This document shows positions 29,931-44,471 of a stretch of 64,000 bases of DNA, piece after piece (the stretch's first letter is position 1; each line of letters opens with the position of its first letter). Location: contig JAJRYF010000064.1 in NCBI GenBank assembly GCA_024275935.1, positions 1,098 to 65,097 on the forward strand, in the 5' to 3' direction. Both the position numbers and the translations under genes were made by a program. Below the pieces are notes generated by a model. The model did not search any database. It was not told the origin of the DNA and saw only the letters and a program-made list of their open reading frames with translations. The DNA comes from Gammaproteobacteria bacterium. Its GTDB lineage: Bacteria; Pseudomonadota; Gammaproteobacteria; Xanthomonadales; SZUA-36.

Positions 29931-30140
29931 ATGGAAATCGTCTATTTCACAATCACAGCAATTTTCCTTTATCTGTTTTCTGACTGGCTTCTACAGCGGA
30001 TAGAGCTTAGCCTCGGGCGTCGACTGGAACACAGGTCAGTAATATTCTTTGCGATCATTCTGGTACTTGCAGTCAGCACATTTGCCCTAGTTCAGTCATT
30101 TCAACCGGAAATAGTGAGCGCATCTTTAACTGAGGAGTGA
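29931..30140 (+). CDS. Small two-TM membrane protein, hypothetical
   Basis: 69 aa with two hydrophobic helices. Its 3' end overlaps the convergent HCO-like gene by 15 nt. Confidence 0.3.
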   Translation: MEIVYFTITAIFLYLFSDWLLQRIELSLGRRLEHRSVIFFAIILVLAVSTFALVQSFQPEIVSASLTEE

Positions 30141-31499
30141 TTCAGGTTTAGGTGGCCACATGGCCTTAAATACAATTACCAGAAACATAACCCCACCAAT
30201 AATCGCGATTAGTCCACCGATACCCATAATGAGCATACCAGCCAGTTCTTGGATGTTATCCAGACCCTGAGCCTCACCAGCAGTTTTCCTCTGCACTCCC
30301 CGATTTCCGGATAATGCCAAACCCAGTACATGCATCAACTGACCAACACCAAAAATTATTGGCTGCAGGTTTACACTTCTACCAATTGGCTTCCTGAACC
30401 CAAGCATGGGTAATAAGTGATAGGTCAAACCCATAAATGCCAAAGTTACTGCCACAATTGAGCCATGATAATGTGCAGGTACCGTGACATTACTACCGTC
30501 AATTAGAAAGCCAATAATACCACCGGAACCAAATAACAACATGGAGAACCATAGCGCCGATCGCTCAGCCCTAGCAGTAACAATAGCTTTCCCACTAGAA
30601 ATTACAGCAAGCAAAATTATCAAGGCAAATGGTAGTGCCGCCAAACCGCCACCAAACTGCATCTGCCAGGTAAACCCTAGAAGATGGTTGGCTGAGCCGA
30701 TCTCGTATGCCCAGTAAATATAGATGCCAAACAAGGCAGGAATTGCTCCCAGAGCAAACAATAGCAGAGCCACCCGTGGGTTTAGGCGTAATTTGGCACC
30801 GGATACAGCAGCCAGCCATAACCATGCCACCAACATCAACTGCACATGCATAAATTGGATAGTGTGACCACTAGCCCAGAAAAGCAATTCGTAGTATGTC
30901 GTATCCTGGGCAAAAGCTGGCATTCCAATCCATGAAGCAAACAGCGCCAGTATCGATAACAGCCCAATCACTAATGCTGTATATAAACCGAAACGCAAAG
31001 CCGCCCCGCTACGAATATAGTGACCAACCGCCTGAGAGAAAAATAGACCACGCAAAACCAGCAAGCCAAACCCTAAACCAAACAACCCCAGCCCAGCAAA
31101 AAATATTGGATCACGCAACACTGGAACATAGTTGTTCATCAGCGGATCACCCGCACCTAGAAACGGTGCAATGCTTATTATTGTGGCGCCACCAACACAT
31201 AAATATAAAGCTACCCAGCCACAAGTCTGACATGCGGTTGAACTATTTAAGCTCCATAACACACCGGCAAAGGATAAAAACCAAACCACTACAGTAAGAT
31301 CTACATGCACCACCAAAGCGGTATGAAAGAAATCAACCCAAGGGAAAATATCCTGAATTCCAGGCGTACGCGAGAGCACTACAAGCAGGGTATAAAGCCC
31401 TGCTACTACCAGCGACCCTAACGCCAGCATAAGCCAACCAATAGCCAGGCGCCGACTCCCGGAGTCAGGGGCAGGTAATGAAAAGGCAAGCTTCAGCAT
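30126..31499 (-). CDS. Divergent 12-TM heme-copper oxidase subunit-I-like protein with a non-canonical CuB site
   Basis: By-eye alignment to the adjacent subunit I and to the remembered Thermus ba3 subunit I. Helix II has a His (ALVVHVDL). Helix VI reads FWASGHTIQF, with the His present and Phe at H+4. The helix VII doublet reads ANH instead of HH. Helix X reads VPAHYHGS, so both heme His are present. Twelve hydrophobic segments; no subunit II is adjacent. Confidence 0.7.
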   Translation of the reverse strand: MLKLAFSLPAPDSGSRRLAIGWLMLALGSLVVAGLYTLLVVLSRTPGIQDIFPWVDFFHTALVVHVDLTVVVWFLSFAGVLWSLNSSTACQTCGWVALYLCVGGATIISIAPFLGAGDPLMNNYVPVLRDPIFFAGLGLFGLGFGLLVLRGLFFSQAVGHYIRSGAALRFGLYTALVIGLLSILALFASWIGMPAFAQDTTYYELLFWASGHTIQFMHVQLMLVAWLWLAAVSGAKLRLNPRVALLLFALGAIPALFGIYIYWAYEIGSANHLLGFTWQMQFGGGLAALPFALIILLAVISSGKAIVTARAERSALWFSMLLFGSGGIIGFLIDGSNVTVPAHYHGSIVAVTLAFMGLTYHLLPMLGFRKPIGRSVNLQPIIFGVGQLMHVLGLALSGNRGVQRKTAGEAQGLDNIQELAGMLIMGIGGLIAIIGGVMFLVIVFKAMWPPKPESLLS

Positions 31500-31514: not shown

Positions 31515-32015
31515 TTATTTGAATACAAAACCATCCTCCGAGTTAAAATCAATCAATAATTGTTGGGCGGGCTCCAACTTTATATTTTGGCTTGCGACAA
31601 ATCGACTACCCTGCAGGTGAACACTATCGTTCATCTTAACCTCAAAATGGTGTTGACCTGCCGTAACTTTGACTGACCGATAGACATTTACACTGCCATC
31701 GGCAAACAAACCCGGTGGTTGAGCGGTAATATTAAATAACTCTTCGCCATCCATGCTGACCTCTATTTTTATCGGTGAGCGCTCGCGTGGACAATCCATG
31801 GGCTTACGCATATTGGGTGCAAGCTTGGCCAGGTCTTCCGCTGAGACTTTACGGCAAGGCTTTAACAACTCTCCACTATGGCTTACAGAAATCACTACAA
31901 CAGCCTGGTTCGGCTCTAGATAACGATAAGCCGGGGCCGCAGAGAAATACCAAACCAGGGCCATAAAAATGGCATAGTTAACGATCTGTAGTGTGTGCTT
32001 TATGAACTTATTCAT
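31515..32015 (-). CDS. Membrane-anchored periplasmic protein, hypothetical
   Basis: Start placed at the ATG at 32015, which overlaps the upstream stop by 8 nt (ATGAATAA). One N-terminal TM helix (IVNYAIFMALVWYF) is followed by a soluble domain of about 130 aa. Confidence 0.5.
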   Translation of the reverse strand: MNKFIKHTLQIVNYAIFMALVWYFSAAPAYRYLEPNQAVVVISVSHSGELLKPCRKVSAEDLAKLAPNMRKPMDCPRERSPIKIEVSMDGEELFNITAQPPGLFADGSVNVYRSVKVTAGQHHFEVKMNDSVHLQGSRFVASQNIKLEPAQQLLIDFNSEDGFVFK

Positions 32016-33555
32016 CTTCCACACAGCTTTCATCCAACCTAGGCCCAGGTTTCTCAAGGATACTCAATTTCTGCCGAAACTCATCTAAAGCTTTGGCTAC
32101 AGCCCGGCTATCGGTAATTGCCCCACCATGGATATGGATACGCTCGGCCTCGGCTCTGGCGCGCAATACCGGATGACGAGAAGATGCCATCCTCTGTTCC
32201 ATCCAACGATTGCCAAAGCGGCAATAACAATCTGTGTGCCGACAACCTGCAATCATTACCCCGTCAGCACCATTACTTAGCGCATACTCAACCAGTGCCG
32301 GCGGCAACATTCCACTGCAAATTAGTTTAATCCCTTGAATGTCTTGTGCCTCCAACCCATCCACATCGACCCCATGTTGGCAGCCGAACATGATGATTTT
32401 CGTATCGCCACGCAAGGCCACCAAAGCGGTATCAGTAAGGTTACGAACTTCATTAATGGGAAACTGCGGCATATCAATTCCGGTGTGCAAATCCGGCTCA
32501 GCTTTGCGAAAAGGGTTTGATGAAATACATGCTCCCACACAAATTCCACAGGCAGCACATAAGTCCGGATCAACGACTACCTCATACTCATGACGGGCTC
32601 CATCCGTGCGCGCACGAACTGAAATCGCATCGTAAGGGCAATCCTCAAAGCACTGGGTACAGCCATTGCAATTATTTAGATCTACCACTGCTGCTGGAGC
32701 TTTCTTCTTTGCCGGCAACCAGGGCATCAACATAAGCAGAACCGTGACTCCCATAACCAATGCCCAAACCTGCCCGGGTGTCCAATAGTCCAGTAAAGGA
32801 TATATATTCAGATAAAACCAGTCGAGATTTAGCACAGCCGGCAGCGTAGTTAAGTCAGCCGGGGGATGACTGGTGGCTGGTTTTATTAGTGACAAAACCA
32901 ACATCGCCAGCAAACTGCCAATAGCCAATCCTTTGGGCGGCATAATATTGACATTGGAGAGTCTGCGAACATGAAACCAAAGTACAAAAATCAGCATTAT
33001 CGGCTGACCCAACAAGTGCAGGAACTCGATTAGAATAAAGAATCTATCATTGAGCCTACCATCCACAAAATTACTCGACATAGAACCAAAAAATATTGGT
33101 AACTCATCCATTAACAAGGCAGAGCCAATAGCTAAATATTGAGCCAACTGATCCCACACCAACCAGTACCCAGTAATCCCGAGTAAAACAACCATCCATA
33201 GTGCTGGGATCCCGGTCACCCATGAGTACCATCTAATACCACGGTAACGACCTAATGCAAACTCTCTAAATATATGCAAAATAATAGTCGCTACTGCGGC
33301 ATCTGATGAGTACCTATGCAGGCTTCGCATCACCCCTCCAGCGTACCATTGCTCATTGGTAATTCGTTCGACCGAAGCATAGGCACCATCCAGACTACCA
33401 TGAAAAAATAGAAACAGATAAACACCACTGACCAGTGCTATCCAGAAAAAAAAGAAAGTAAGAGTGCCTAAATGGTAGAGCGGGTTCCATTCCTTAAATG
33501 AAATGTTTAACCATGCCTCCAGCAGTAAATAAAGCCGCTTGACTGGATTCAGCAT
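32008..33555 (-). CDS. Fusion protein: di-heme cytochrome b (N-terminal domain type), 2x[4Fe-4S] ferredoxin and an MvhD/FlpD-like domain
   Basis: Cytochrome b His pairs are RSLHRYSSDAAVATIILH (14 apart) and FLHLLGQPIMLIFVLWFH (15 apart, b6-like), plus the GYWLVWDQL motif. Two Cys clusters follow (CNGCTQCFEDCP and CAACGICVGAC). The C-terminus has KLICSGMLPPALVEYALSNGADGVMIAGCRHTDCYCRFGN, as in methyl-viologen-reducing hydrogenase delta subunit domains. Confidence 0.75.
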   Translation of the reverse strand: MLNPVKRLYLLLEAWLNISFKEWNPLYHLGTLTFFFFWIALVSGVYLFLFFHGSLDGAYASVERITNEQWYAGGVMRSLHRYSSDAAVATIILHIFREFALGRYRGIRWYSWVTGIPALWMVVLLGITGYWLVWDQLAQYLAIGSALLMDELPIFFGSMSSNFVDGRLNDRFFILIEFLHLLGQPIMLIFVLWFHVRRLSNVNIMPPKGLAIGSLLAMLVLSLIKPATSHPPADLTTLPAVLNLDWFYLNIYPLLDYWTPGQVWALVMGVTVLLMLMPWLPAKKKAPAAVVDLNNCNGCTQCFEDCPYDAISVRARTDGARHEYEVVVDPDLCAACGICVGACISSNPFRKAEPDLHTGIDMPQFPINEVRNLTDTALVALRGDTKIIMFGCQHGVDVDGLEAQDIQGIKLICSGMLPPALVEYALSNGADGVMIAGCRHTDCYCRFGNRWMEQRMASSRHPVLRARAEAERIHIHGGAITDSRAVAKALDEFRQKLSILEKPGPRLDESCVEDE

Positions 33556-33612: not shown

Positions 33613-34416
33613 TCAATCACGAACAAAGCGCCGTCTATGCCGCCATTCCTTGAACAACCAAAGGCTGACCAGAAGAATAATCACAGCACCGATGAATATG
33701 CCAATAAACAATGAGTAATCGAAAAAATAACCATCTCTAACGGGATCATAGACTGTACAAAAAAGTTTAACTTTATTAAATAGCCCAGAAAAAAAAGTTT
33801 GCTGTGGCTGCGGTCTTCCCAGCACCAGGTCCTTTAAAGGCTCAACTAATAACGGGGTTTCAAATGCCTGCCCATATACTTGTCTATAGACTTTACCATC
33901 AGCATCAATCACAGTTGCCTGAATAATATGATCAAAACCGTTAGCTGATGGGTAAACTACCAGACCTACATCAGCAACTAAGGCCTTGGCCTCGTTCGCG
34001 TCCATACTAAAGAGCTTCCAGTTAGAACTCTCCAGACCCTGAATTTTTCCGAAATACGCCATTGCCTCTGGAGTATCGACTGTAGTATCAAAGCCAATGG
34101 AAACTACGGAAAAACTATCTTCCCCAAGTGCTGCACGAGCTTTTCCAATCACCTTGGCAAGGTGCCTGGTAGTCATTGGGCAAATTTGATAGCAGCTAGT
34201 ATAGATCATACTCAGCACAAGCGGCTTACCCCTAAGGTCAGCCAGTTCTGAGTGATTACCTTCACTATCGACCAGTGAATAGTTACCAATATGCTTACCA
34301 ATCACAGCCTGACTAGTCTTTAGCGCCGATTTATACTCATACTGATCTTCTTCAGCGACAGCTGAAGAAATCAGAATAAATACAAGGGTCAGAGCTACCA
34401 GCTTTAGCGTACGCAC
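33613..34416 (-). CDS. SCO1/SenC-family copper chaperone with an extra C-terminal TM segment
   Basis: Signal or anchor at the N-terminus, CYQICP (CxxxC) motif, conserved His (FDHIIQATVIDADG) and a C-terminal TM helix (IFIGAVIILLVSLWLF). Confidence 0.8.
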   Translation of the reverse strand: MRTLKLVALTLVFILISSAVAEEDQYEYKSALKTSQAVIGKHIGNYSLVDSEGNHSELADLRGKPLVLSMIYTSCYQICPMTTRHLAKVIGKARAALGEDSFSVVSIGFDTTVDTPEAMAYFGKIQGLESSNWKLFSMDANEAKALVADVGLVVYPSANGFDHIIQATVIDADGKVYRQVYGQAFETPLLVEPLKDLVLGRPQPQQTFFSGLFNKVKLFCTVYDPVRDGYFFDYSLFIGIFIGAVIILLVSLWLFKEWRHRRRFVRD

Positions 34417-34422
34417 ACCATC

Positions 34423-35280
34423 TCAACCGCCAACAGCGACATCAATTATCGCTCCCAGCAATAGTAAGACTAATTGAACAAGAGATGCAAAAAAACTTCC
34501 CATCGCAACTTTCGGGAATGGCTGCTGCACCATCTGCAGATTCTTATAAATAAAATAAGCACCGCCACTAAGAGCACCTAATAAATAAACCCAGCCCATA
34601 CCATAAAAGAACGGCAGGATAGATATGGCTACTAGAACGAGGGTATTGGCTAATACTACTTTAGCGGCCATCCGGTCACCAACCACCACCGGTAGCATGG
34701 GTACGCCTACTTTTTCATAATCACCATGCCTGGCGATAGCCAACGACCAGAAATGTGACGGGGTCCAGAAAAACAACACAAGTGCGAACAATATTGGTAT
34801 CGGGTGCATCCCCGGATCAACAGCTGCGGCGCCAGCCAATACAGCAAAACTACCAGAAGCACCACCAATAACTATATTTAACCAGGTACGGCGTTTAAGC
34901 CAAACGGTATAGACTACTGCGTAAAAGAATGCACCCAGGAAAATATACAAAGCAGATTGAGCGTTTAACACCAAGGCAGCACTACCAACACCGAGAATTA
35001 CCAACAACAGAATTATTCCCAGCCAATAAGGTTTCCTCTGTAATTGACCAGTAACAAATGGACGATCGTTAGTCCTTTGCATCTGAGCATCCAGGTCAGC
35101 TTCATAGTATTGGTTAAAAGCTCCTGCAGCGGCAGCACTAATCAGAACTGCCACCGCCAGCACCAAAATTTCCCATCCCCCCAGGCTTCTTCCCGGGGTG
35201 ATGGCCATGGCCACCAGGGCGGTCAGCATCATGACCACCCCAATACGAAGCTTAAACAAACTAACCAACTGCCTGAGCAT
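34423..35280 (-). CDS. ctaB: Protoheme IX farnesyltransferase (heme O synthase)
   Basis: UbiA-family polytopic protein with NQYYEADLDAQMQRTNDRP and the typical CyoE/CtaB layout. Confidence 0.88.
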   Translation of the reverse strand: MLRQLVSLFKLRIGVVMMLTALVAMAITPGRSLGGWEILVLAVAVLISAAAAGAFNQYYEADLDAQMQRTNDRPFVTGQLQRKPYWLGIILLLVILGVGSAALVLNAQSALYIFLGAFFYAVVYTVWLKRRTWLNIVIGGASGSFAVLAGAAAVDPGMHPIPILFALVLFFWTPSHFWSLAIARHGDYEKVGVPMLPVVVGDRMAAKVVLANTLVLVAISILPFFYGMGWVYLLGALSGGAYFIYKNLQMVQQPFPKVAMGSFFASLVQLVLLLLGAIIDVAVGG

Positions 35281-35289
35281 TATCGTTAC

Positions 35290-37026
35290 TTAGCCAATCG
35301 GCCAAACTGAGGATAGATAACCCCAGTTAATAAAGTAGTAGATAACAAAGCTAACCAACAGCAACATTGCCAAGGCAAAGGTGCCTGGCGCTGCAAAGCC
35401 TGCAGAACCATGCTCCTCAACTGTTAGTTTCTCAGCCCTTTCCAGAGTCGCAGGCTTGTCAACATTGTAGACTTCTGGCGCTAACGCTTTGAGACCGAAG
35501 CTAGCGAAGATACCCGCAGAAGCCTCCAGTTTCTTGCCAAATAACAAGGAGCCAACAGTAACAATGATATAAGCTGCACCACCAATTACTGCCAGAACAC
35601 CACCAATTCCAGCCAACGCCATCATCATATAGGCTGTACCAGGGTAATCAAAACTAAGTGCTGCCCCGGTGAAGCCCATGTCCCAGTGCCTGCGGGAAAC
35701 ACCCAATGTACCAGCTCCCAGCAGGAACAGAATCAACATTGTCATTCCAGCACTGAAAATATATGGCTGCCATTTTGCTAATGTCGGCAAAAACAATTGC
35801 CGCCTGAACAGCACCGGAATCAACAGGTATGTCAATGCCATAAAGGTCAGAGTGGTACCTACTGCTACCGTGGCATGAAAATGTCCCGGAACATACATGG
35901 TGTTATGGATAATAAGATTGATTTGCTCAGTACCCATTACCACGCCAGTTATCCCGCCTAGGAAGCCAAAGATAACCAGTGCCAAGAAGAAACCTGAGAA
36001 TACCGGATTGCCCCAAGGAGCCTTCCGCAACCACTCAAACAAACCCTTGGTAAGCCCTTTCTTACGCTGCGCAATTTCCATTGACCCTGGAACCGAAAGA
36101 CCATGGATCATACTCGCCAATACCGCCAGATACATCGCATAACTGGTATTGAATATCTTCCATTCAGAGCTCATGCCAGGATCTACCAGCAAATGATGAG
36201 CGCTGGCTAACTGTAAGAACAGAATATACAGTAAGAATGCCATTCGACTGACCTTCTCTGACATTGGCCTGGCCATAAATAGGACACCAGCCAACAAGTA
36301 CCAAATAGATACCATAGCGGCCATATTGATCTGTTGCGAGGAATGACCAAAGGCCCACCAGATGAGTCGATACATAACCGCATCAATCTGGTTGATATAT
36401 CCGATTGACCAGAGGAAGGTAGGAATAAGAATAATCGCACCCGAGGCAATCGTAAAAATCGCGATTATAGTAGCTGTGAGTGCACCAAAGGTAACCAATG
36501 GTATGGAACCTTTATAAGTTTTCTCATTCCGAGCTATGATCAAAGTACCCAAGAATACAAAGCAACCTATCAGCGCACCTACCGCAAACAGGATTAAACC
36601 CAGATAGAAATGTGGCTGTGCCTGCATCGGCACATACGAAGTCATCATTACGCTGGACTTACCACTTAACACAGCAATATTATTCATCACTGCGCCAATA
36701 ATCATCAGGGCGAATCCCATCCAAGCCCATCGCGGAGCCGCTAGACGACATCGCAGCAGGGTGGAAGAGGCAAAATATAGCACCGCTATCTCAAAAAATA
36801 TTACCCAGAAAATAAGAGCATTAATACCGTGAGAGGTCAGCACCATATAAAAAGTGTCGGCCGGCAACAGGTGAATGGTCTGCCAACGAGTCAGAATCAC
36901 CCCGAGGGCAGCAACACCCGCCAGCAGTAGGCTGACAACCGCAGCTACAGCGTTAACTTTCATCAGCTGCTCAGCTGATTTGTCAAAATAAAATCCCGAA
37001 TCGGGACAAACTCTAAACTGTGCCAT
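35290..37026 (-). CDS. B-family-like heme-copper oxidase subunit I lacking the cross-link tyrosine (sNOR/NorY-like candidate NO reductase)
   Basis: Colinear with the ba3 subunit I. Matches include TSHGINALIF, IWWAFGHSSQQ (His present, Gln at H+4 where ba3 has GHPIVY), ASAHHLLVDPG and HNTMYVPGHFHATV. Confidence 0.8.
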   Translation of the reverse strand: MAQFRVCPDSGFYFDKSAEQLMKVNAVAAVVSLLLAGVAALGVILTRWQTIHLLPADTFYMVLTSHGINALIFWVIFFEIAVLYFASSTLLRCRLAAPRWAWMGFALMIIGAVMNNIAVLSGKSSVMMTSYVPMQAQPHFYLGLILFAVGALIGCFVFLGTLIIARNEKTYKGSIPLVTFGALTATIIAIFTIASGAIILIPTFLWSIGYINQIDAVMYRLIWWAFGHSSQQINMAAMVSIWYLLAGVLFMARPMSEKVSRMAFLLYILFLQLASAHHLLVDPGMSSEWKIFNTSYAMYLAVLASMIHGLSVPGSMEIAQRKKGLTKGLFEWLRKAPWGNPVFSGFFLALVIFGFLGGITGVVMGTEQINLIIHNTMYVPGHFHATVAVGTTLTFMALTYLLIPVLFRRQLFLPTLAKWQPYIFSAGMTMLILFLLGAGTLGVSRRHWDMGFTGAALSFDYPGTAYMMMALAGIGGVLAVIGGAAYIIVTVGSLLFGKKLEASAGIFASFGLKALAPEVYNVDKPATLERAEKLTVEEHGSAGFAAPGTFALAMLLLVSFVIYYFINWGYLSSVWPIG

Positions 37027-37032
37027 GATTCT

Positions 37033-37569
37033 TTACTCCTTCACAATCATTTTGCCAAGCATCATGTGATGCCCGATGCCGCAATATTCATTGCAGACAA
37101 TCGCGAAATCACCTGATTGATCAGGCGTTAATTTGATAACCATTTCATAACCCGGAATAACCTGCAGGTTAATATTCACAGGCTGCAGGGAGAAGCCGTG
37201 CTGCCAGTCGAGTGAGGACAAGTGCAGCCGGTAACTCTTATCTTTTTCCAACTCAAGAATTGGATACCACTGCCAGAGACGACCAAGCAGGTAAATATCA
37301 CTACCAGCCGGGGGAGTGACGATTGGTACCCCACCTTCCTCACCGGTCTGGTACTTCTCAACCATTTCATCCACCCTAGCTTTAAACTTCGCCGGAGTAG
37401 TCTGATAGGCCTCATTAGAAAGGTTCTGTTTTCCGTAAACATGCCAGAAAGGCATCATAAAAAACATGATCAAACACCACACCAAGGCAATGCCGATCCA
37501 TAAAATCTCTTCTTTGCCGAGAGGTGTTTTCCACCATATTCGCTCAGCAGGTGGTTGAAATGTAGTCAT
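37033..37569 (-). CDS. Oxidase subunit II with an intact CuA site, single TM helix (NorS-like)
   Basis: CuA ligand pattern H(GFS)...CNEYCGIGHHMM fits CxExCGxxHxxM. One N-terminal TM helix, as in ba3-type subunit II. A strong RBS (AGGGAGGG) lies upstream. Confidence 0.85.
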   Translation of the reverse strand: MTTFQPPAERIWWKTPLGKEEILWIGIALVWCLIMFFMMPFWHVYGKQNLSNEAYQTTPAKFKARVDEMVEKYQTGEEGGVPIVTPPAGSDIYLLGRLWQWYPILELEKDKSYRLHLSSLDWQHGFSLQPVNINLQVIPGYEMVIKLTPDQSGDFAIVCNEYCGIGHHMMLGKMIVKE

Positions 37570-37582
37570 TTTTAAACCCTCC

Positions 37583-37747
37583 CTATTCGGCTATCGGCAA
37601 ATTAGCTATTTCCATAATGCCCCAGACGATGTAGAAAACAGTGGGGATAGTTATCCCCAGAAAAAGCAAGAGAAACGGGTTGTCTAGCAGTTGCTGCCAG
37701 AAAGGAATTTTCTCTGGTGTTGCCTCAGGTTGCGGCAGGTCATCCAT
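37583..37747 (-). CDS. Unannotated 54-aa single-TM protein, first gene of the sNOR-like operon
   Basis: Below the ORF-track size cutoff. The ATG at 37747 is preceded by AGGAGG at a 5-nt spacing. Product: MDDLPQPEATPEKIPFWQQLLDNPFLLLFLGITIPTVFYIVWGIMEIANLPIAE. Its stop lies 13 nt before the subunit II start. Confidence 0.5.
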   Translation of the reverse strand: MDDLPQPEATPEKIPFWQQLLDNPFLLLFLGITIPTVFYIVWGIMEIANLPIAE

Positions 37748-37824: not shown

Positions 37825-37838
37825 TTGATATAGGTCAA
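37825..37838. promoter_or_regulatory. FNR/ANR/Dnr-type box upstream of the sNOR-like operon
   Basis: TTGATATAGGTCAA matches TTGAT-N4-GTCAA. It is centred about 85 bp upstream of the ATG at 37747. Confidence 0.6.
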
Positions 37839-38105: not shown

Positions 38106-38924
38106 TCAATGACTAAAGTTAAGCTCTAAACTAAGCTTGTCTATAGTCACAATAATGCCCTTACTTGGCCCTGAAATTATTCTCAGCCGTGCCACCGACA
38201 GGTTATCCTCATTGGTTAAAAACTCCCCTGGCCCTGGAATATTAATTTGTTGAATAATTTTCCAACTATCCATATTTACCAGACTAACAATGCCGTCTAG
38301 CATATCGGGTATTGCCAATAGTGCTCCACTCTGGTGTTTCCACTGTAAAGCAAGAGCCGGGCGGGGTTTGGGAGAGCTTCTGATCTTATCGGCAACTACT
38401 CTGGCCATATCCAAATCTACAATCTGAAGTTTACCGTGGCTTGATACCCCCACCAGAAACACACCCTGAGGATCAACATATAAGTCTGATAACGGACTGT
38501 TTGTATGAATCACACGCACGGGAAAGGCATCCGCTTTGGCATTTTCTCCAGAATCTACCCGATAGTCATGTACCCAGCTGGCAAACCCAGGCGGTGGTTC
38601 ATCCGCATATGAGATTTGCCAAATTTCAGCAATATCTGTAAGCGCCACAATGAAGCTTTCTCTTACAGGCAGCGTATATACCGCACTTATACCAGATCTA
38701 TCACCGTGAAAGTTGCGGACTGTTTTGGATAACAACACATTACCCGAGCGGGCATCCTGAATTTGCAACTGGAACGGCGTTATGGAGCTTATCTGATATC
38801 GCTTATCTGCCGATATCGCTATAGCATGCTCAGCTTTGCTCGAAATACTCAAAGAGCCTGCATAAACCCCGGTTGCCAGTAGTAGCAAAACGCTCAGATA
38901 CAGAAGCACTCTAAAAAACATCAA
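38106..38924 (-). CDS. Periplasmic protein resembling part of a cytochrome cd1 beta-propeller, without a heme c domain
   Basis: Signal peptide. The segment IAEIWQISYADEPP...LYVDPQGVFLVGVSSHGKLQIVDLDMARVV parallels NirS in this window (LGQMWQVDYSDLDN...FFDPTGRYFQIAANASDKMVIVDSKTGKL). Confidence 0.5.
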   Translation of the reverse strand: MMFFRVLLYLSVLLLLATGVYAGSLSISSKAEHAIAISADKRYQISSITPFQLQIQDARSGNVLLSKTVRNFHGDRSGISAVYTLPVRESFIVALTDIAEIWQISYADEPPPGFASWVHDYRVDSGENAKADAFPVRVIHTNSPLSDLYVDPQGVFLVGVSSHGKLQIVDLDMARVVADKIRSSPKPRPALALQWKHQSGALLAIPDMLDGIVSLVNMDSWKIIQQINIPGPGEFLTNEDNLSVARLRIISGPSKGIIVTIDKLSLELNFSH

Positions 38925-38937
38925 TACTACCTAGTGA

Positions 38938-39264
38938 CTATTCAATCACATGAACGATTCCGGTCATTTTCGGATGTGGCCCACAACGGTAAGGAAAGCT
39001 TCCAACTTCATCGAATACGCGCTCATAGAACTCATCTGGAAACAGGTAATCTGGCTCTTCTTCACCGGAGGCTTCAAACCAGACATTGTGGTACTGGCGC
39101 TGCTCCTGATTTTCCCAACGGACAGTAGTCCCACGCTTGATAGTAATTTCTTGTGCGCTGAACTGGAAGCCCTTAATAACTACAATAGTTAGCTTATTAT
39201 CTGTGCGAACCTCCTGGGCGAAAACAACCAGCAGAAATATCATCAAATAAGTTTTCCAGCGCAT
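38938..39264 (-). CDS. Amicyanin-like type-1 copper protein (cupredoxin)
   Basis: Signal peptide. Cu ligands are His (QYHNV) and C-G-P-H-P-K-M, with the same spacing as the amicyanin C-T-P-H-P-F-M. Confidence 0.8.
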   Translation of the reverse strand: MRWKTYLMIFLLVVFAQEVRTDNKLTIVVIKGFQFSAQEITIKRGTTVRWENQEQRQYHNVWFEASGEEEPDYLFPDEFYERVFDEVGSFPYRCGPHPKMTGIVHVIE

Positions 39265-39278
39265 ATAATTATTCCTGT

Positions 39279-41114
39279 CTATTGAGCTATGGCATTAATT
39301 TCAGCGCCATCGTCATCGAAGCCCAGCTTAAATCCAAGCGATACATGATGGAAACGACTACTAGAGTAATCATCATGAATGGCAAAACCAATGTTATACC
39401 GCTGGTCAAGCACCATGCTGATATCTCCTGGCTGCTCCGAAGTCAACTTACGCACCATCTCAACTGTCCACAGGCCATCTTTCAATTCACCGATAAAGCT
39501 TACCCCCTGACCTCCGGTCATTACCCGCTCTGCAAGAATATAGCCATCCTCGGCTTCACCTGTGCCTGATTTATATCGCAGCAGGTCCATAAAAGAGCCA
39601 TTTTCAAGCGCTGCCTGAATTTCAGCCTCAGTTTTCAGCTTATCCCAGCCACCACGCGGCTTACCATCTTTGCCGTCAATTTCAATTTCGGTACGGCTTT
39701 CTTTGAGATACTTGGTAAAGCCATGACTTAAATCCAGTCTTGCCGCAAGCGGGCTGCTCGACAGGATGGCTTTATCAGGCTGATCAGGCATATCGTTGTT
39801 ATCTTGATGACAACTCTGCCAGCAACCGGCGCGTTCTGCATATTCAACCTTTGGGTTCTCTTCGTTATCGGTTGTCAGCATCAATGCCAATTTGATTTGA
39901 TTGTCAGGGTCCTGCTTGCCGCCATCCACAAAAGGAATGGCTACATGCTCAGTATCTTCCCACTGAAAACGCATATACAGAAACTCTTTATTGTGGGCCG
40001 CCTGGATATTCAAATTAATATACCCACGCTTACCGGCTATTGGGGTAGGCTCCAGCTTTTCACCGCTGATAATTAGATCACCGATATCAACTTCTTCATC
40101 CTGGTGGCATTCGACACAACGATCACCCTTGGTGAATGCTCTTTTGCCGCCATGATCACTACCCTTCAACATCCATTCCATGGAAGACTGGCCGGGGTAA
40201 AACAAAACTATCTCAGTTGCCTCTATTGCACTCCATGCAATTTCTTTGCTGTTCGCAGGGAGCACGACCGGAGTACTTGCAGTAGCGGCAATCGTTTGCG
40301 TATCTTCTGATACTGGTACAGCTTTATTATCTATCGCACTGACAGCTACTTGCGCTGCAGCTTCATCAACTGTATCTGCCGGGGCTTCAACCTCTGTCTG
40401 CGCTTCTGACGCCTGCGTAGGTATAGTTTTAGTAGGCGCTTCTGCACCTTTATTTTCTGCCTCAACTAAAGCTTGCCATTGCGACGCTAAAGGACGACCA
40501 ATCAACTTGGGATTAGGTAGTGCGAGTTGATCAAGCTCTTCTTCGGTTAATTCATCATGCACTTTGGTATGTGCGATGCCTTTATGACAATCAATACAGG
40601 TGTTGCCGCTTTGCATTCCACTCAAATGTTGTTTCCGCGAACGCTTTTTCTGTTCCGCAGGGTCCATAGAGTCAAAATCGTGACAGTTTCTGCATTCACG
40701 AGAATCAGTTGACTTCATCGCCGTCCAGACTCTGCGAGCCATAACCAGACGGTGTGCATCAAATTTTTCCGGGGTATCGATGGTTCCAAGGGCTTTGTGT
40801 AAAAGTTCTTTGCTGGCTTGTACTTTTCTGACTACCTTATGCACCCATGGGTCTGGAACATGGCAATCTGAACAGGAAGCACGCACTCCACTACGGTTAC
40901 TAAAATGTTTTGTTTCTTTATACTCTTTATAGACGTTATCTTTCATTTCATGACAGGAAATACAAAACTCCATTGTATTTGTAGCTTCCATGGCGGTGTT
41001 AAAACCGCCCCAGAAGATAACACCAACCAGCATGAAAAACAAAGCTGCACCAACTGAGGCACCGAGCATGATTTTTCTTGAGAAGAAACCGGGCTTACTT
41101 TTACTGGTAGTCAT
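39279..41114 (-). CDS. NapC/NirT-type tetraheme cytochrome c fused to a C-terminal EB_dh/cytochrome c-552-like heme domain
   Basis: N-terminal TM anchor and four CxxCH motifs (CISCH, CSDCH, CRNCH, CIDCH with KGIAH). An Ala/Glu/Thr/Val-rich linker follows. The domain of about 330 aa has a fifth CxxCH (CVECH), a CWQSCH motif and EB_dh-like segments (YMRFQWED, GFAIHDD). Confidence 0.8.
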   Translation of the reverse strand: MTTSKSKPGFFSRKIMLGASVGAALFFMLVGVIFWGGFNTAMEATNTMEFCISCHEMKDNVYKEYKETKHFSNRSGVRASCSDCHVPDPWVHKVVRKVQASKELLHKALGTIDTPEKFDAHRLVMARRVWTAMKSTDSRECRNCHDFDSMDPAEQKKRSRKQHLSGMQSGNTCIDCHKGIAHTKVHDELTEEELDQLALPNPKLIGRPLASQWQALVEAENKGAEAPTKTIPTQASEAQTEVEAPADTVDEAAAQVAVSAIDNKAVPVSEDTQTIAATASTPVVLPANSKEIAWSAIEATEIVLFYPGQSSMEWMLKGSDHGGKRAFTKGDRCVECHQDEEVDIGDLIISGEKLEPTPIAGKRGYINLNIQAAHNKEFLYMRFQWEDTEHVAIPFVDGGKQDPDNQIKLALMLTTDNEENPKVEYAERAGCWQSCHQDNNDMPDQPDKAILSSSPLAARLDLSHGFTKYLKESRTEIEIDGKDGKPRGGWDKLKTEAEIQAALENGSFMDLLRYKSGTGEAEDGYILAERVMTGGQGVSFIGELKDGLWTVEMVRKLTSEQPGDISMVLDQRYNIGFAIHDDYSSSRFHHVSLGFKLGFDDDGAEINAIAQ

Positions 41115-41233: not shown

Positions 41234-42904
41234 TCAAGTTACATGGTTAACACGATTGGTAACATTGAACTTGCCGGTTGGTGTAGTTAAGCCCTTGATG
41301 CGAGCTTTCTCTTCAAATGTTTTCGCATCATAAATTACGATCTCACCGGTAGGGTTACCTGAGTCCGTCCGATTCCAGACTGAAATCCAGACCTCACTTC
41401 CATCCGCGTTAAACTCAATGTGAACCGCAACCTTACCTTCTTCCTCGGTAACATGGATAGTCTTGACAACTTTTCCAGTTTCCTTGGAAATCACTTTCAC
41501 ACTCTGCTGAATAACAGGTTCAGGGTGAAGTGTCTGGTCTGCCCACACATAGTCAGAAGTTGGGTGAGTCCGAATAAACAGGCCAGGGCCATCGGTATCA
41601 ACTACATAACAGATCTTCCAGGCGTTGTCTTTGTGACCAGCCGGATCATTGCCCCAAACAGTCACTTTACCAACACCCAAATGTGTGGTGCCTCCTACAG
41701 GGCCACATTTAGGGTCATTCCAGTTAGCACCGGGGCCCGGATGCGGCTTGCTTTCTACATCAATCATAGCGGTAAGCTTGCCAGTTTTAGAATCAACAAT
41801 AACCATTTTGTCAGATGCATTAGCTGCAATCTGGAAGTAACGACCTGTTGGGTCAAAGAAGCCGTCATGCAGATACTTTGCAGTGTTTACCATGGTGATG
41901 TCGAGATTGTCCAGATCGGAATAATCTACTTGCCACATCTGCCCAAGCTCTTTTACTGATACCCAGAAAGTAGGCTGGTTCGGGGTAGTGTAAATCGCCG
42001 CGACCCGTGCTTCATTAACATAATCACCATCAACACTGATACCACGGGTTGATACGACTTTCAATGGCTCCATGGTCACTGCATCCAGGATCACAAAATG
42101 CGGTGGCCAGTAACCGCCACCGATAACATATTTGCCATCGCCTGAGACCGCAACATCGCGCGCGTCATACGCCATTTGGGTTTCAGCAACCAGCATGTTT
42201 CCTGGTTTCTGCCAAAGATCAATTTTGGTCATTTTGCCGTCACGACCCTGGGTATACCAGAAGCGACCAGGCTCACCGTTTACCGGTTTCTCAATGGAAT
42301 GTTTTTCGGTTGTTTTAATTACATGAACCGCATAGCCGGTATCGATATGATCGACAATTTCATGCTTATCACCGTCAATAATCGCAACCTTGCCGGCATC
42401 CCGTTCGATAACTACGAAAAAGTTCTTCCAGTTACGATTGTGCAACGGCTTGCTTGGATAGTCCGCTGGGGCAATATACACTTTATGCCGTTCTTTCATC
42501 AGTGCCAGAGACATTTCCGGCGGGGTCGGTGGCTCCATCTGGATGTATCTGGCCAAAAGATCAATCTGCCGATCATCATAGATGTCATCAAAATTGTTCA
42601 TACCGCCTTCTGTACCATACTTGATGATTTTGGCCAGCCGCTTGGTACCCAATTTAAGTGTACCTTTACTCTTTTTCGCCGCATTCGGCTGTGGCTCCAG
42701 ATTCGTGCCGGTAGCGCCTACACGCAAAACTCCGTGACAACCGGCACAACGCTGGAAGTACATACTTTTGGCTTCCTCAAACTCAGCCTCATTGAGTGGT
42801 ACTATCGGGTCTTTTGCGGCAAATGCAGGGTTGCTAAACACCGCAATGCCAAAGACCGCTGTTAGTAGCATGGATCTAAATAAAACTTTCTGTTTCGTTC
42901 TCAT
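41234..42904 (-). CDS. nirS: Cytochrome cd1 nitrite reductase
   Basis: 556 aa with a signal peptide and an N-terminal heme c domain (CAGCHG). Eight-bladed-propeller-type sequence typical of NirS follows. Confidence 0.92.
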   Translation of the reverse strand: MRTKQKVLFRSMLLTAVFGIAVFSNPAFAAKDPIVPLNEAEFEEAKSMYFQRCAGCHGVLRVGATGTNLEPQPNAAKKSKGTLKLGTKRLAKIIKYGTEGGMNNFDDIYDDRQIDLLARYIQMEPPTPPEMSLALMKERHKVYIAPADYPSKPLHNRNWKNFFVVIERDAGKVAIIDGDKHEIVDHIDTGYAVHVIKTTEKHSIEKPVNGEPGRFWYTQGRDGKMTKIDLWQKPGNMLVAETQMAYDARDVAVSGDGKYVIGGGYWPPHFVILDAVTMEPLKVVSTRGISVDGDYVNEARVAAIYTTPNQPTFWVSVKELGQMWQVDYSDLDNLDITMVNTAKYLHDGFFDPTGRYFQIAANASDKMVIVDSKTGKLTAMIDVESKPHPGPGANWNDPKCGPVGGTTHLGVGKVTVWGNDPAGHKDNAWKICYVVDTDGPGLFIRTHPTSDYVWADQTLHPEPVIQQSVKVISKETGKVVKTIHVTEEEGKVAVHIEFNADGSEVWISVWNRTDSGNPTGEIVIYDAKTFEEKARIKGLTTPTGKFNVTNRVNHVT

Positions 42905-43135: not shown

Positions 43136-44374
43136 TTAAAATTTAGCTGTTGCCATTAACCATAGCTTAGTGGTGTCTGGATAACCGGTATCGCCACTAT
43201 AGAAAGCCGCCTTGAACAGCAAGCTGTAATGCTTGTTGATAGGGGTTGCCAGCACCGCATTGAACTCATTACCATAATCATCACTGCCGTCCTCGGCTGA
43301 ATAATCGTGATAAACCAGTGTCCATTTGTTTTTGCCGAATTTACCTTTAGCACCAACAAAGAAGTCATTGAGCCCGGCATTCGGGGTCGCCAGGAATTTA
43401 TCCGCCCAGCCGTTAAATGCATGCAAAGTGGCCAGTGGGGTACGGAAAGCTGCACCGGCTCTATTTTGATCCCCACCCAGAGATTCAAAACCGCCGAAAA
43501 TTGTCAGCGGCTGGAATGCAAAAGCCGCATCGAGGCGATAATAAGCCGCCGAATAATCTACTGGATTATTGGCTTTGTCAGTTTGGTAGGCGTACTCCAG
43601 ACCATAGGTGAATTTAGCCTCATCGCCACCAACTTTACCTGCCCATTTTACGCCGAAAGTACTGGTAGAAAATCCAGCCGCATCCTGGTTATCAATGTCA
43701 TACCAATAACCGACCAATTTGCCGGCACCCGCTACCGGGAAAGCCAGGTTAGCAAGGAAAGTATCCTGTTCATGATCACCGGCGGGTACATCCTCGCCGA
43801 AAATACGATTCACATTCCAAACATAACTCACAAACAGCTTAGCTTTATTGTTAAAGCTGGAGGTATATGAAACGGCATCATAGGTCTGTTCATTTTGACG
43901 CCAACCCACTCCGCCGACAAAGCGCTGATTGTCCAGCAAAATACGCTGGCGCCCGCCGCGTAAGAAACTGTCTTTATTAAAATTGTAATCCAGATATGCC
44001 TGATTAACTTCGGTACCGTTAGGGTCGGCAACTACAGGGTAGATGCTTTTACCCGGAGGTGAAGTACCGGCCCCACTGTTGAAATCATCAACGATGATAT
44101 GAGAGATATTCTCCGCTTCAAGGAACACGCTGAATCCGTTCCAGCGGGATGTTCGGTAATTCAACCGAGTCCTCAGGGTAGATGCATTAGCATTTTTGCT
44201 AAAGCCTTCCTGATCAACGAATTCATAGCGGTAACGCAGCGTTACCTGGGCCTTGCCCTCTGTAATCGCTTCTGCGATAGAGCCTGACTCTTCTGCCAGT
44301 GCATTCGATGTAGTGAATAATAAGCCTGCTGATAATAATGCAAGCGCCAGTGTGTTCTGTTTAAGTAATAACAT
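43136..44374 (-). CDS. Outer-membrane beta-barrel porin (alginate-export/AlgE-like family)
   Basis: Signal peptide. N-terminal TLRYRYEFVDQ and LRTRLNYRT motifs are typical of this family. Alternating beta-strand pattern and a C-terminal Phe. Confidence 0.65.
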   Translation of the reverse strand: MLLLKQNTLALALLSAGLLFTTSNALAEESGSIAEAITEGKAQVTLRYRYEFVDQEGFSKNANASTLRTRLNYRTSRWNGFSVFLEAENISHIIVDDFNSGAGTSPPGKSIYPVVADPNGTEVNQAYLDYNFNKDSFLRGGRQRILLDNQRFVGGVGWRQNEQTYDAVSYTSSFNNKAKLFVSYVWNVNRIFGEDVPAGDHEQDTFLANLAFPVAGAGKLVGYWYDIDNQDAAGFSTSTFGVKWAGKVGGDEAKFTYGLEYAYQTDKANNPVDYSAAYYRLDAAFAFQPLTIFGGFESLGGDQNRAGAAFRTPLATLHAFNGWADKFLATPNAGLNDFFVGAKGKFGKNKWTLVYHDYSAEDGSDDYGNEFNAVLATPINKHYSLLFKAAFYSGDTGYPDTTKLWLMATAKF

Positions 44375-44457: not shown

Positions 44458-44471
44458 TTGACATTGGTCAA
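44458..44471. promoter_or_regulatory. FNR/ANR/Dnr-type box upstream of the porin gene
   Basis: TTGACATTGGTCAA is a perfect palindrome (TTGAC-N4-GTCAA). It is centred about 90 bp upstream of the ATG at 44374. Confidence 0.55.

Follow-up and report, generated by a model that had tools for sequence, protein, structure and literature searches.

A nirS-linked operon of a marine gammaproteobacterium that probably encodes an eNOR-type nitric oxide reductase

The residue at the position of the catalytic tyrosine serves as a signature among heme-copper enzymes: oxidases have Tyr, sNOR and bNOR have Asn and eNOR has Gln, and gNOR is marked by an Asp in place of a His ligand (PMC8756737 Table A4, after Hemp & Gennis 2008). 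The eNOR family was first described in Natronomonas (PMC8756737). One member has been purified, from Rhodothermus marinus, and others have been seen in Natronomonas, Thermus, Chloroflexota, Accumulibacter and Gallionellaceae (Hemp & Gennis 2008; Murali et al. 2024, PMC11214002). The R. marinus protein reduces nitric oxide (NO) to N2O and does not reduce O2, and Gallionellaceae express eNOR under denitrifying conditions (PMC11214002). According to the same work, eNOR retains the B-type K-channel, the low-spin heme has His/Lys ligation in some members, structural models of the Tyr-less NO reductase (NOR) families contain no migrated Tyr, and GTDB genomes hold 547 eNORs. An O2-reducing 'K family' has been placed as the sister of eNOR (10.1101/592808). 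Here we analysed a 64,000-nt stretch (the window) of contig JAJRYF010000064.1, positions 1,098 to 65,097 of the forward strand, from assembly GCA_024275935.1 of a Gammaproteobacteria bacterium, and in it a minus-strand operon that encodes subunits I and II of a heme-copper enzyme. We consider it highly probable, judging from the sequences, that the core of this operon is an eNOR-family nitric oxide reductase. In that case it adds an ordinary representative to a family whose signature, operon and environmental spread have already been published.

The 578-amino-acid (aa) subunit I (35290-37026, minus strand; PF00115, 208.9 bits) aligns end to end with B-family oxidases, and its best matches in the PDB are the Aquifex enzyme (7deg_A, E=3e-47) and the ba3 oxidase of Thermus thermophilus (E~1e-40). 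It has about 12-13 transmembrane (TM) helices. The six His ligands are H66, H228, H277, H278, H382 and H384, with H228 corresponding to ba3 H233. In helix VI, the sequence H228-S-S-Q231-Q232-I-N234 replaces H-P-I-V-Y-F-W of ba3, so that the GHSSQQ motif is aligned to GHPIVY and ba3 Tyr237 corresponds to Gln232. The colinearity with ba3, the full set of His ligands and the exchange of Tyr for Gln, all of which the first-pass annotation had claimed for this subunit, are thus confirmed residue by residue. The likeness to the ba3 oxidases of T. thermophilus and Aquifex aeolicus extends to the fold, the ligand set, a CuA-bearing subunit II, a small extra TM subunit and a single K-type channel, whereas the exchanges Tyr237 to Gln, Val236 to Gln, Trp239 to Asn, Thr312 to His and Tyr244 to Val set the query apart from them. 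A pseudogene or chance open reading frame (ORF) was ruled out, as the reading frame of subunit I is kept at 80-85% identity in more than 100 clusters.

An alignment of 93 family members showed Q231, Q232, N234, Y243, H277, H278 and H382 to be invariant; S305 and H308 are each kept in 92 of them, and H384 is replaced by Lys in 2, the other 91 having His. As 80 of the 93 sequences came from a genome scan with the Gln-Gln motif as one of its two patterns, the invariance of the two glutamines is largely built in; the other positions are unaffected. The first-pass annotation had also suggested a look at the proton-channel residues. We found a K-channel-like set in subunit I, made up of Ser305 (the equivalent of ba3 S309), Tyr243, Ser311 and Ser256, with ba3 Thr312 replaced by His308 family-wide, together with Glu21 in subunit II. 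At the helix VII site six residues before the His-His pair, which provides the Tyr in C-family enzymes, the sequence reads Leu and no Tyr is present. The absence of the cross-link Tyr claimed earlier holds both at its own position, occupied by Gln232, and at the C-family site; judged from the sequence, a Tyr migrated to yet another place is improbable.

Such an enzyme could in principle still be an O2 reductase, namely a specialised high-affinity B-family-like oxidase that takes the missing electron from another residue or tolerates incomplete O2 reduction. The closest solved structures are ba3-type oxidases, the K-channel-like residues are retained, genes for heme o synthase and SCO stand in the operon after the fashion of oxidase operons, databases label subunit I as cytochrome c oxidase subunit I, and the Tyr-less sNOR has been argued to be an oxidase (10.1101/765727). 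Nevertheless, the Tyr is missing in 93/93 family members (most of them selected via the Gln-Gln motif), the site of the C-family Tyr donor is Leu, family models contain no migrated Tyr and the purified R. marinus eNOR did not reduce O2 (PMC11214002). Taken with the promoter and genome evidence described below, we regard an O2-reducing role as quite unlikely.

Subunit II (37033-37569, minus strand, 178 aa; PF00116) was aligned to subunit II of ba3 with E=2.7e-15. It has one N-terminal hydrophobic TM helix followed by a periplasmic cupredoxin domain, and the CuA ligands are H124, C159, E161 (through its backbone), C163, H167 and M170. The single TM helix and the complete CuA motif reported in the first-pass annotation are in agreement with the helix prediction and with the ba3 alignment. 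H124, C159 and C163 are invariant in 82/82 subunit II homologues, with H167 and M170 kept in at least 90%. The same 82/82 invariance applies to Glu21, which lies where the helix ends on the cytoplasmic side and is positioned like ba3 E15(II) at the entrance of the K-channel.

Family members were collected by scanning species genomes with the pattern [YW]W[GIA]xGH[GSM][SAT]QQ and a second family pattern, and the matches were confirmed as relatives. This yielded at least 577 confirmed loci in Gemmatimonadota, Chloroflexota, Nitrospinota, Nitrospirota, Acidobacteriota, Aquificota and Pseudomonadota, a number of the same order as the 547 GTDB eNORs of PMC11214002; the best 80 of these loci provided the sequences used further, and R. 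marinus was not among them. We then examined a maximum-likelihood tree of 74 sequences with support from the Shimodaira-Hasegawa-like approximate likelihood ratio test (SH-aLRT), built without the R. marinus eNOR and without any sNOR. All 53 Gln-Gln sequences formed one clade (SH-aLRT 100), and the query was nested inside it, in a fully supported proteobacterial subclade beside Sulfuricaulis, Burkholderiaceae and sequences from betaproteobacterial metagenome-assembled genomes (MAGs). The clade also holds Natronomonas pharaonis P0354, the T. thermophilus plasmid protein, Thermomicrobium roseum and Anaerolineae proteins. Sequences with a Gln-Tyr motif, which keep the Tyr, branch just outside, and the canonical B-family oxidases lie farther out, a topology in line with the sister position of the O2-reducing 'K family' (10.1101/592808).

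The same order is seen among the full-length proteins of the 150 nearest 50%-cluster representatives, where Gln-Gln sequences are closest, followed by a small Gln-Tyr group and then by oxidases with GHP[LIV]VY. The most distant Gln-Gln representative is haloarchaeal, and its relatives include N. pharaonis CAI50239; the N. pharaonis protein (P0354) is 39% identical to the query over its full length. Full-length Gln-Gln homologues were found by tblastn also on plasmids, in Defluviimonas (59% identity), T. thermophilus (45-46%) and on the megaplasmid of T. roseum (44%). The T. thermophilus plasmid protein has H-F-K in helix X and so a Lys as low-spin ligand, matching the His/Lys variant that PMC11214002 reports for some eNORs. 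Overall, the query shares with eNOR the B-family descent, the CuA-bearing subunit II, a Gln where oxidases have the cross-link Tyr, the K-channel-like residues, ctaB and SCO in the operon, and the clade with Natronomonas, Thermus-plasmid and Chloroflexota proteins at 39-46% identity. No family-defining feature differs; the query departs from other eNORs in that both its low-spin heme ligands are His, as opposed to His/Lys in some, in that its ctaA stands outside the operon on another contig, and in that, in its marine gammaproteobacterial subclade, the operon ends with an extra gene for a metal-site-degenerate subunit I paralogue.

The Gln-Tyr relatives (P0130, P0133, P0135 and P0149, from Hodarchaeales and Thermoproteota MAGs) share Gln231, His308 and Ser305 with the query and branch beside the Gln-Gln clade, but they retain the catalytic Tyr and are hence presumed to be oxidases. 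They may represent the oxidase-like state that gave rise to eNOR, perhaps the 'K family' of 10.1101/592808. Another group of B-family relatives (P0182, P0198, P0219 and locus L014 on an Azospirillum plasmid; a Dehalococcoidia MAG and others) has F-H-x-x-H-Y in helix VI; in the alignment two His ligands are exchanged for Tyr, one being the leading His of the His-His pair and the other that of the high-spin heme (P[GA]Y[FLV]H). These sequences sit on a long branch with full support, close to the eNOR/Gln-Tyr group, and could be matched to no named family.

The first-pass annotation had named the enzyme a candidate sNOR. The sNOR of ammonia oxidisers, nitrite oxidisers and methanotrophs (NorSY-SenC) is indeed similar in being a Tyr-less B-family derivative with a CuA subunit, a linked SCO/SenC gene and a proposed NO reductase role, and here a CuA subunit II and a Tyr-less subunit I are likewise accompanied by an SCO/SenC gene two genes downstream, resembling the norSY-senC order described for ammonia oxidisers (10.1101/765727). 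However, sNOR has Asn at the Tyr position, giving a bNOR-like site (PMC8756737 Table A4; PMC11214002), whereas the query has Gln232. The S309 equivalent is reported to be missing from sNOR, whose channel region has a conserved Glu at a different place (PMC11214002), while Ser305 is present in the query and in 92/93 of the family. Furthermore, the query nests with full support in the Gln-Gln clade, and sNOR forms a separate clade, reported near nNOR (10.1101/592808); it is by such published descriptions that the query is set apart from sNOR. None of the full-length proteins among the 150 nearest 50%-cluster representatives has Asn at the site. Nor was any Asn-type sequence present in the plasmid hits examined by tblastn or in 30 loci from a sample of 400 genomes of the class; most of these sequences are of the Tyr or the Gln-Gln type, and the 30 loci comprise only Tyr-type B oxidases and Gln-Gln proteins. 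The plasmid matches from Deinococcus, Geobacillus, Methylobacterium, Burkholderia, Variovorax, Rhizobium and Brevibacillus keep the Tyr (GHxIVY / TLHAIVY).

The remaining pointer to sNOR in the first-pass annotation, the senC linkage, did not discriminate, as SCO occurs in 44/83 and ctaB in 29/83 of the eNOR-type loci analysed for operon conservation. The order 'eNOR II, eNOR I, heme o synthase, sco1' has been described as a very common eNOR operon, in which cytochrome b/FeS genes occur too (Ferrigenium straubiae, 2026 preprint, 10.64898/2026.01.22.701106), and because this order recurs in eNOR operons, SenC linkage is no argument for sNOR. We therefore hold an sNOR to be extremely improbable. 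The general idea of a B-family-derived, Tyr-less NO reductase with CuA is supported, and it is the sNOR label that falls, on account of Gln instead of Asn, the S309 equivalent that is kept and the position in the Gln-Gln clade. Likewise, the phylogeny proposed as a check does separate the query from Tyr-bearing oxidases and puts it within the eNOR clade, and the reading as sNOR fails on the Gln signature, the tree itself being without sNOR sequences. Two further NOR types were tried and rejected: gNOR, with Asp for a His ligand and a subunit II devoid of CuA ligands, is ruled out by the three intact metal His and the full CuA site, and cNOR/qNOR, of C-family descent with a Glu ligand to FeB and a cytochrome c subunit or its fused remnant, by the B-family relatives, the cupredoxin subunit and the lack of a match to NorB-type models.

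The operon consists of eight closely spaced minus-strand genes running from 37747 down to 30126, with gaps of 6-57 nt and one overlap. The order subunit II, subunit I, ctaB, senC given in the first-pass annotation was confirmed by model matches, with the addition of a small ORF before subunit II. Position 37747, given earlier as the end of the feature, is the start of this 54-aa ORF (37583-37747), which encodes a single hydrophobic helix at residues 26-44. By its position, the 54-aa protein is a probable small third subunit, analogous to subunit IIa of ba3. Subunit I is followed by the heme o synthase gene ctaB/cyoE (34423-35280; TIGR01473, 260.9 bits vs. a cut-off of 210.3) and by a gene for a copper chaperone of the SCO1/SenC family, which has a CYQIC motif and ends in a TM helix (33613-34416; PF02630, E=1.6e-12). 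Next come a cytochrome b / 2x[4Fe-4S] / FlpD(MvhD)-like fusion recognised by Pfam matches (32008-33555), its 180-aa partner (31515-32057), for which Pfam and NCBIfam scans gave no match, and, as the last gene, a 457-aa paralogue of subunit I (30126-31499; weak PF00115 match, 36.6 bits).

Conservation of the operon was counted over 83 eNOR-type loci, many of them ended early by contig ends. Subunit II was present in all 83, the cytochrome b/FeS fusion in 70 and the 180-aa protein in 50, and a homologue of the small ORF was located by tblastn directly upstream of subunit II in 67. The subunit I paralogue and nirS were each found in 9 loci. A Defluviimonas plasmid carries the identical order of small ORF, subunit II, subunit I, ctaB, SCO, cytochrome b fusion and a 170-aa protein. 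The genome of the query has a single ctaA copy. In relative L104 ctaA is a direct neighbour of the operon, and the 'heme o synthase' encoded next in T. roseum has 600 aa, a length that would accommodate a CtaA-CtaB fusion. A different setting was seen at locus L005 (T. thermophilus HB5018 plasmid pHB5018d), where eNOR-type genes stand beside an Rrf2 (NsrR-like) regulator, a DUF542 (ScdA/RIC N-terminal) protein and a multicopper oxidase; this is an NO-stress setting unlike the proteobacterial operon, and ctaB, SCO and the cytochrome b fusion were not found in the region examined.

The cytochrome b/FeS fusion spans many phyla and, with its 180-aa partner, lies upstream of the enzyme genes in Gemmatimonadota and downstream in Proteobacteria; from this distribution the two look like a near-universal eNOR accessory. 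With subunit I the 457-aa paralogue shares 27% identity (E=8e-17), the heme His ligands and the helix VI His-x-x-Gln (GHTIQF); it has SANH for SAHH, so that one His is lost; its 9 loci belong mostly to the subclade of the query. It is conceivable, if rather doubtful, that in this subclade the eNOR core, the cytochrome b/2x[4Fe-4S]/MvhD-like fusion, the 180-aa protein and the paralogue form a larger, undescribed membrane complex, which would give NO reduction a direct link with the quinone pool or with a different cytoplasmic redox carrier. The presence of three conserved operon genes with no assigned function, together with the failure to find nosZ in the genome, might also be taken to suggest other nitrogen-oxide chemistry, such as NO dismutation or N2O reduction, or mainly NO detoxification or sensing with the paralogue and the cytochrome b/FeS module, outside respiration. 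Roles as NO dismutase or N2O reductase have been suggested for other offshoots of the heme-copper oxidases, but these offshoots belong to the C-family/cNOR/qNOR branch and not to the B family (PMC11214002). Moreover, the sole purified eNOR turns NO into N2O, and the paralogue, restricted to 9/83 loci, is not essential to the core chemistry. We consider such functions very unlikely for this operon, compared with NO reduction by an eNOR.

An FNR/Dnr-type box, which the first-pass annotation had placed upstream of the operon, is present as an exact TTGAY-N4-RTCAA motif at 37825-37838 (TTGATATAGGTCAA; on the operon strand TTGACCTATATCAA) and precedes the first start codon by 78-91 nt. The window contains two such exact sites vs. 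0.46 expected, both upstream of minus-strand genes; as 8/100 shuffled sequences also reach two sites, the box alone is weak evidence. Relatives that are ~81-83% identical have boxes at the same promoter: in L102, L103 and L104, a perfect TTGAT-N4-ATCAA motif precedes the orthologous small ORF by 189-244 nt. In L102 and L103 the only other box in 13-22 kb is ~130 nt upstream of nirS, and in one of these two loci a gene of the Crp/FNR family is encoded ~1 kb upstream of the operon, in the opposite orientation. In our window nirS has no exact TTGAY-N4-RTCAA box of its own; the second exact box (TTGACATTGGTCAA, 44458-44471) is upstream of the gene for a 412-aa Alginate_exp-like porin (43136-44374) that precedes nirS. 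Control of the operon by an FNR/Dnr-type regulator is plausible from these motifs, and a box of the kind found at the nirS promoters of relatives speaks against an oxidase.

The nirS gene reported nearby in the first-pass annotation was located on the same strand at 41234-42904 and encodes a cd1 nitrite reductase with a cytochrome c domain (PF02239, 387 bits). Between nirS and the operon, at 38106-41114, Pfam and NCBIfam matches identified three further minus-strand genes, encoding a NapC/NirT-EB_dh fusion (39279-41114), an amicyanin-like cupredoxin (38938-39264) and a d1-propeller-only protein (38106-38924). From their domains, these are candidate electron-delivery genes. In the fusion protein, the NapC/NirT tetraheme domain is joined by a low-complexity linker to a ~300-aa EB_dh (heme b) domain, and the same fusion follows nirS in L102.

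The genome (2.42 Mb in 155 contigs, 92% complete) contains four PF00115 genes, encoding an aa3-type CoxA, a cbb3 CcoN accompanied by CcoO/P, the eNOR-type subunit I and its paralogue. A narG gene is present (2150 bits), and neither cNOR nor qNOR was found in the 92%-complete genome, where nosZ and napA likewise had no match at cut-off. The genome thus already has aa3 and cbb3 oxidases and no other NOR beside nirS, again contrary to an O2-reducing role. No NO reductase candidate other than the eNOR-type enzyme accompanies nirS, and therefore N2O is the predicted end product of denitrification.

Several points weigh against the assignment to eNOR as a functional NO reductase. Slow NO reduction is also carried out by B-family oxidases. 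The loss of the Tyr is strong, not absolute, evidence against O2 chemistry, and an oxidase role has been argued for sNOR, which is likewise Tyr-less (10.1101/765727). The purified R. marinus eNOR is placed in the clade of the query by literature descriptions, its own sequence being outside our tree. Finally, with an assembly that is 92% complete and split into 155 contigs, cNOR, qNOR and nosZ can only provisionally be called absent. In our view the query enzyme probably reduces NO, as judged from its sequence and its place in the eNOR family.

A working mechanism can be outlined on the basis of established heme-copper enzymology and of the single purified eNOR (PMC11214002). Electrons would come from periplasmic carriers, possibly the neighbouring cupredoxin or c-type cytochromes, fed by quinol via the NirT-type protein. 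Taken up at CuA in subunit II, they would move to the low-spin heme (His66/His384) of subunit I and from there to a binuclear site composed of the high-spin heme (His382) and a non-heme metal on His228, His277 and His278. By analogy with other eNORs the hemes would be of the A type, and the identity of the metal would follow that of the family. Around the binuclear site, Gln231, Gln232 and Asn234 would stand for Val-Tyr-(Phe)-Trp of ba3. With no His-Tyr cofactor there would be no fourth electron for O2 reduction, which the enzyme, like its purified relative, would be expected not to perform, while the reaction 2NO + 2e- + 2H+ -> N2O + H2O would still be feasible. Protons would be taken up from the cytoplasm, probably by a K-channel-like path from Glu21 of subunit II through Tyr243, Ser305, His308 and Ser311, and NO reduction would therefore be electrogenic. 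Maturation of the hemes and of CuA would depend on CtaB, on CtaA encoded elsewhere in the genome and on the SCO protein. The operon would be turned on by an FNR/Dnr-type regulator at low O2 or with NO. NirS would be the source of NO, and with NarG and NirS and without NosZ, denitrification would end at N2O.

Current annotation conceals enzymes of this kind. No NCBIfam model reaches its cut-off on subunit I (the best, CtaD, gives 53 bits vs. a cut-off of 671), and the RefSeq homologues at loci L005-L007 are named 'cbb3-type cytochrome c oxidase subunit I' with an 'aerobic respiration' Gene Ontology term, others being plain cytochrome c oxidase subunit I. We conclude that eNOR is systematically misannotated as an oxidase by pipelines, and that inventories built on oxidase names undercount the capacity for NO reduction. 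In the class of the query eNOR-type genes are widespread: a verified Gln-Gln homologue was found in at least 14 of 400 evenly drawn genomes. If the larger complex considered above were real, a denitrification step would be energy-conserving in a new way. For the organism itself, a marine gammaproteobacterium with nirS, the gene supplies what looked like a 'missing NOR', and the presence of narG with nosZ undetected predicts a partial denitrifier that produces N2O.

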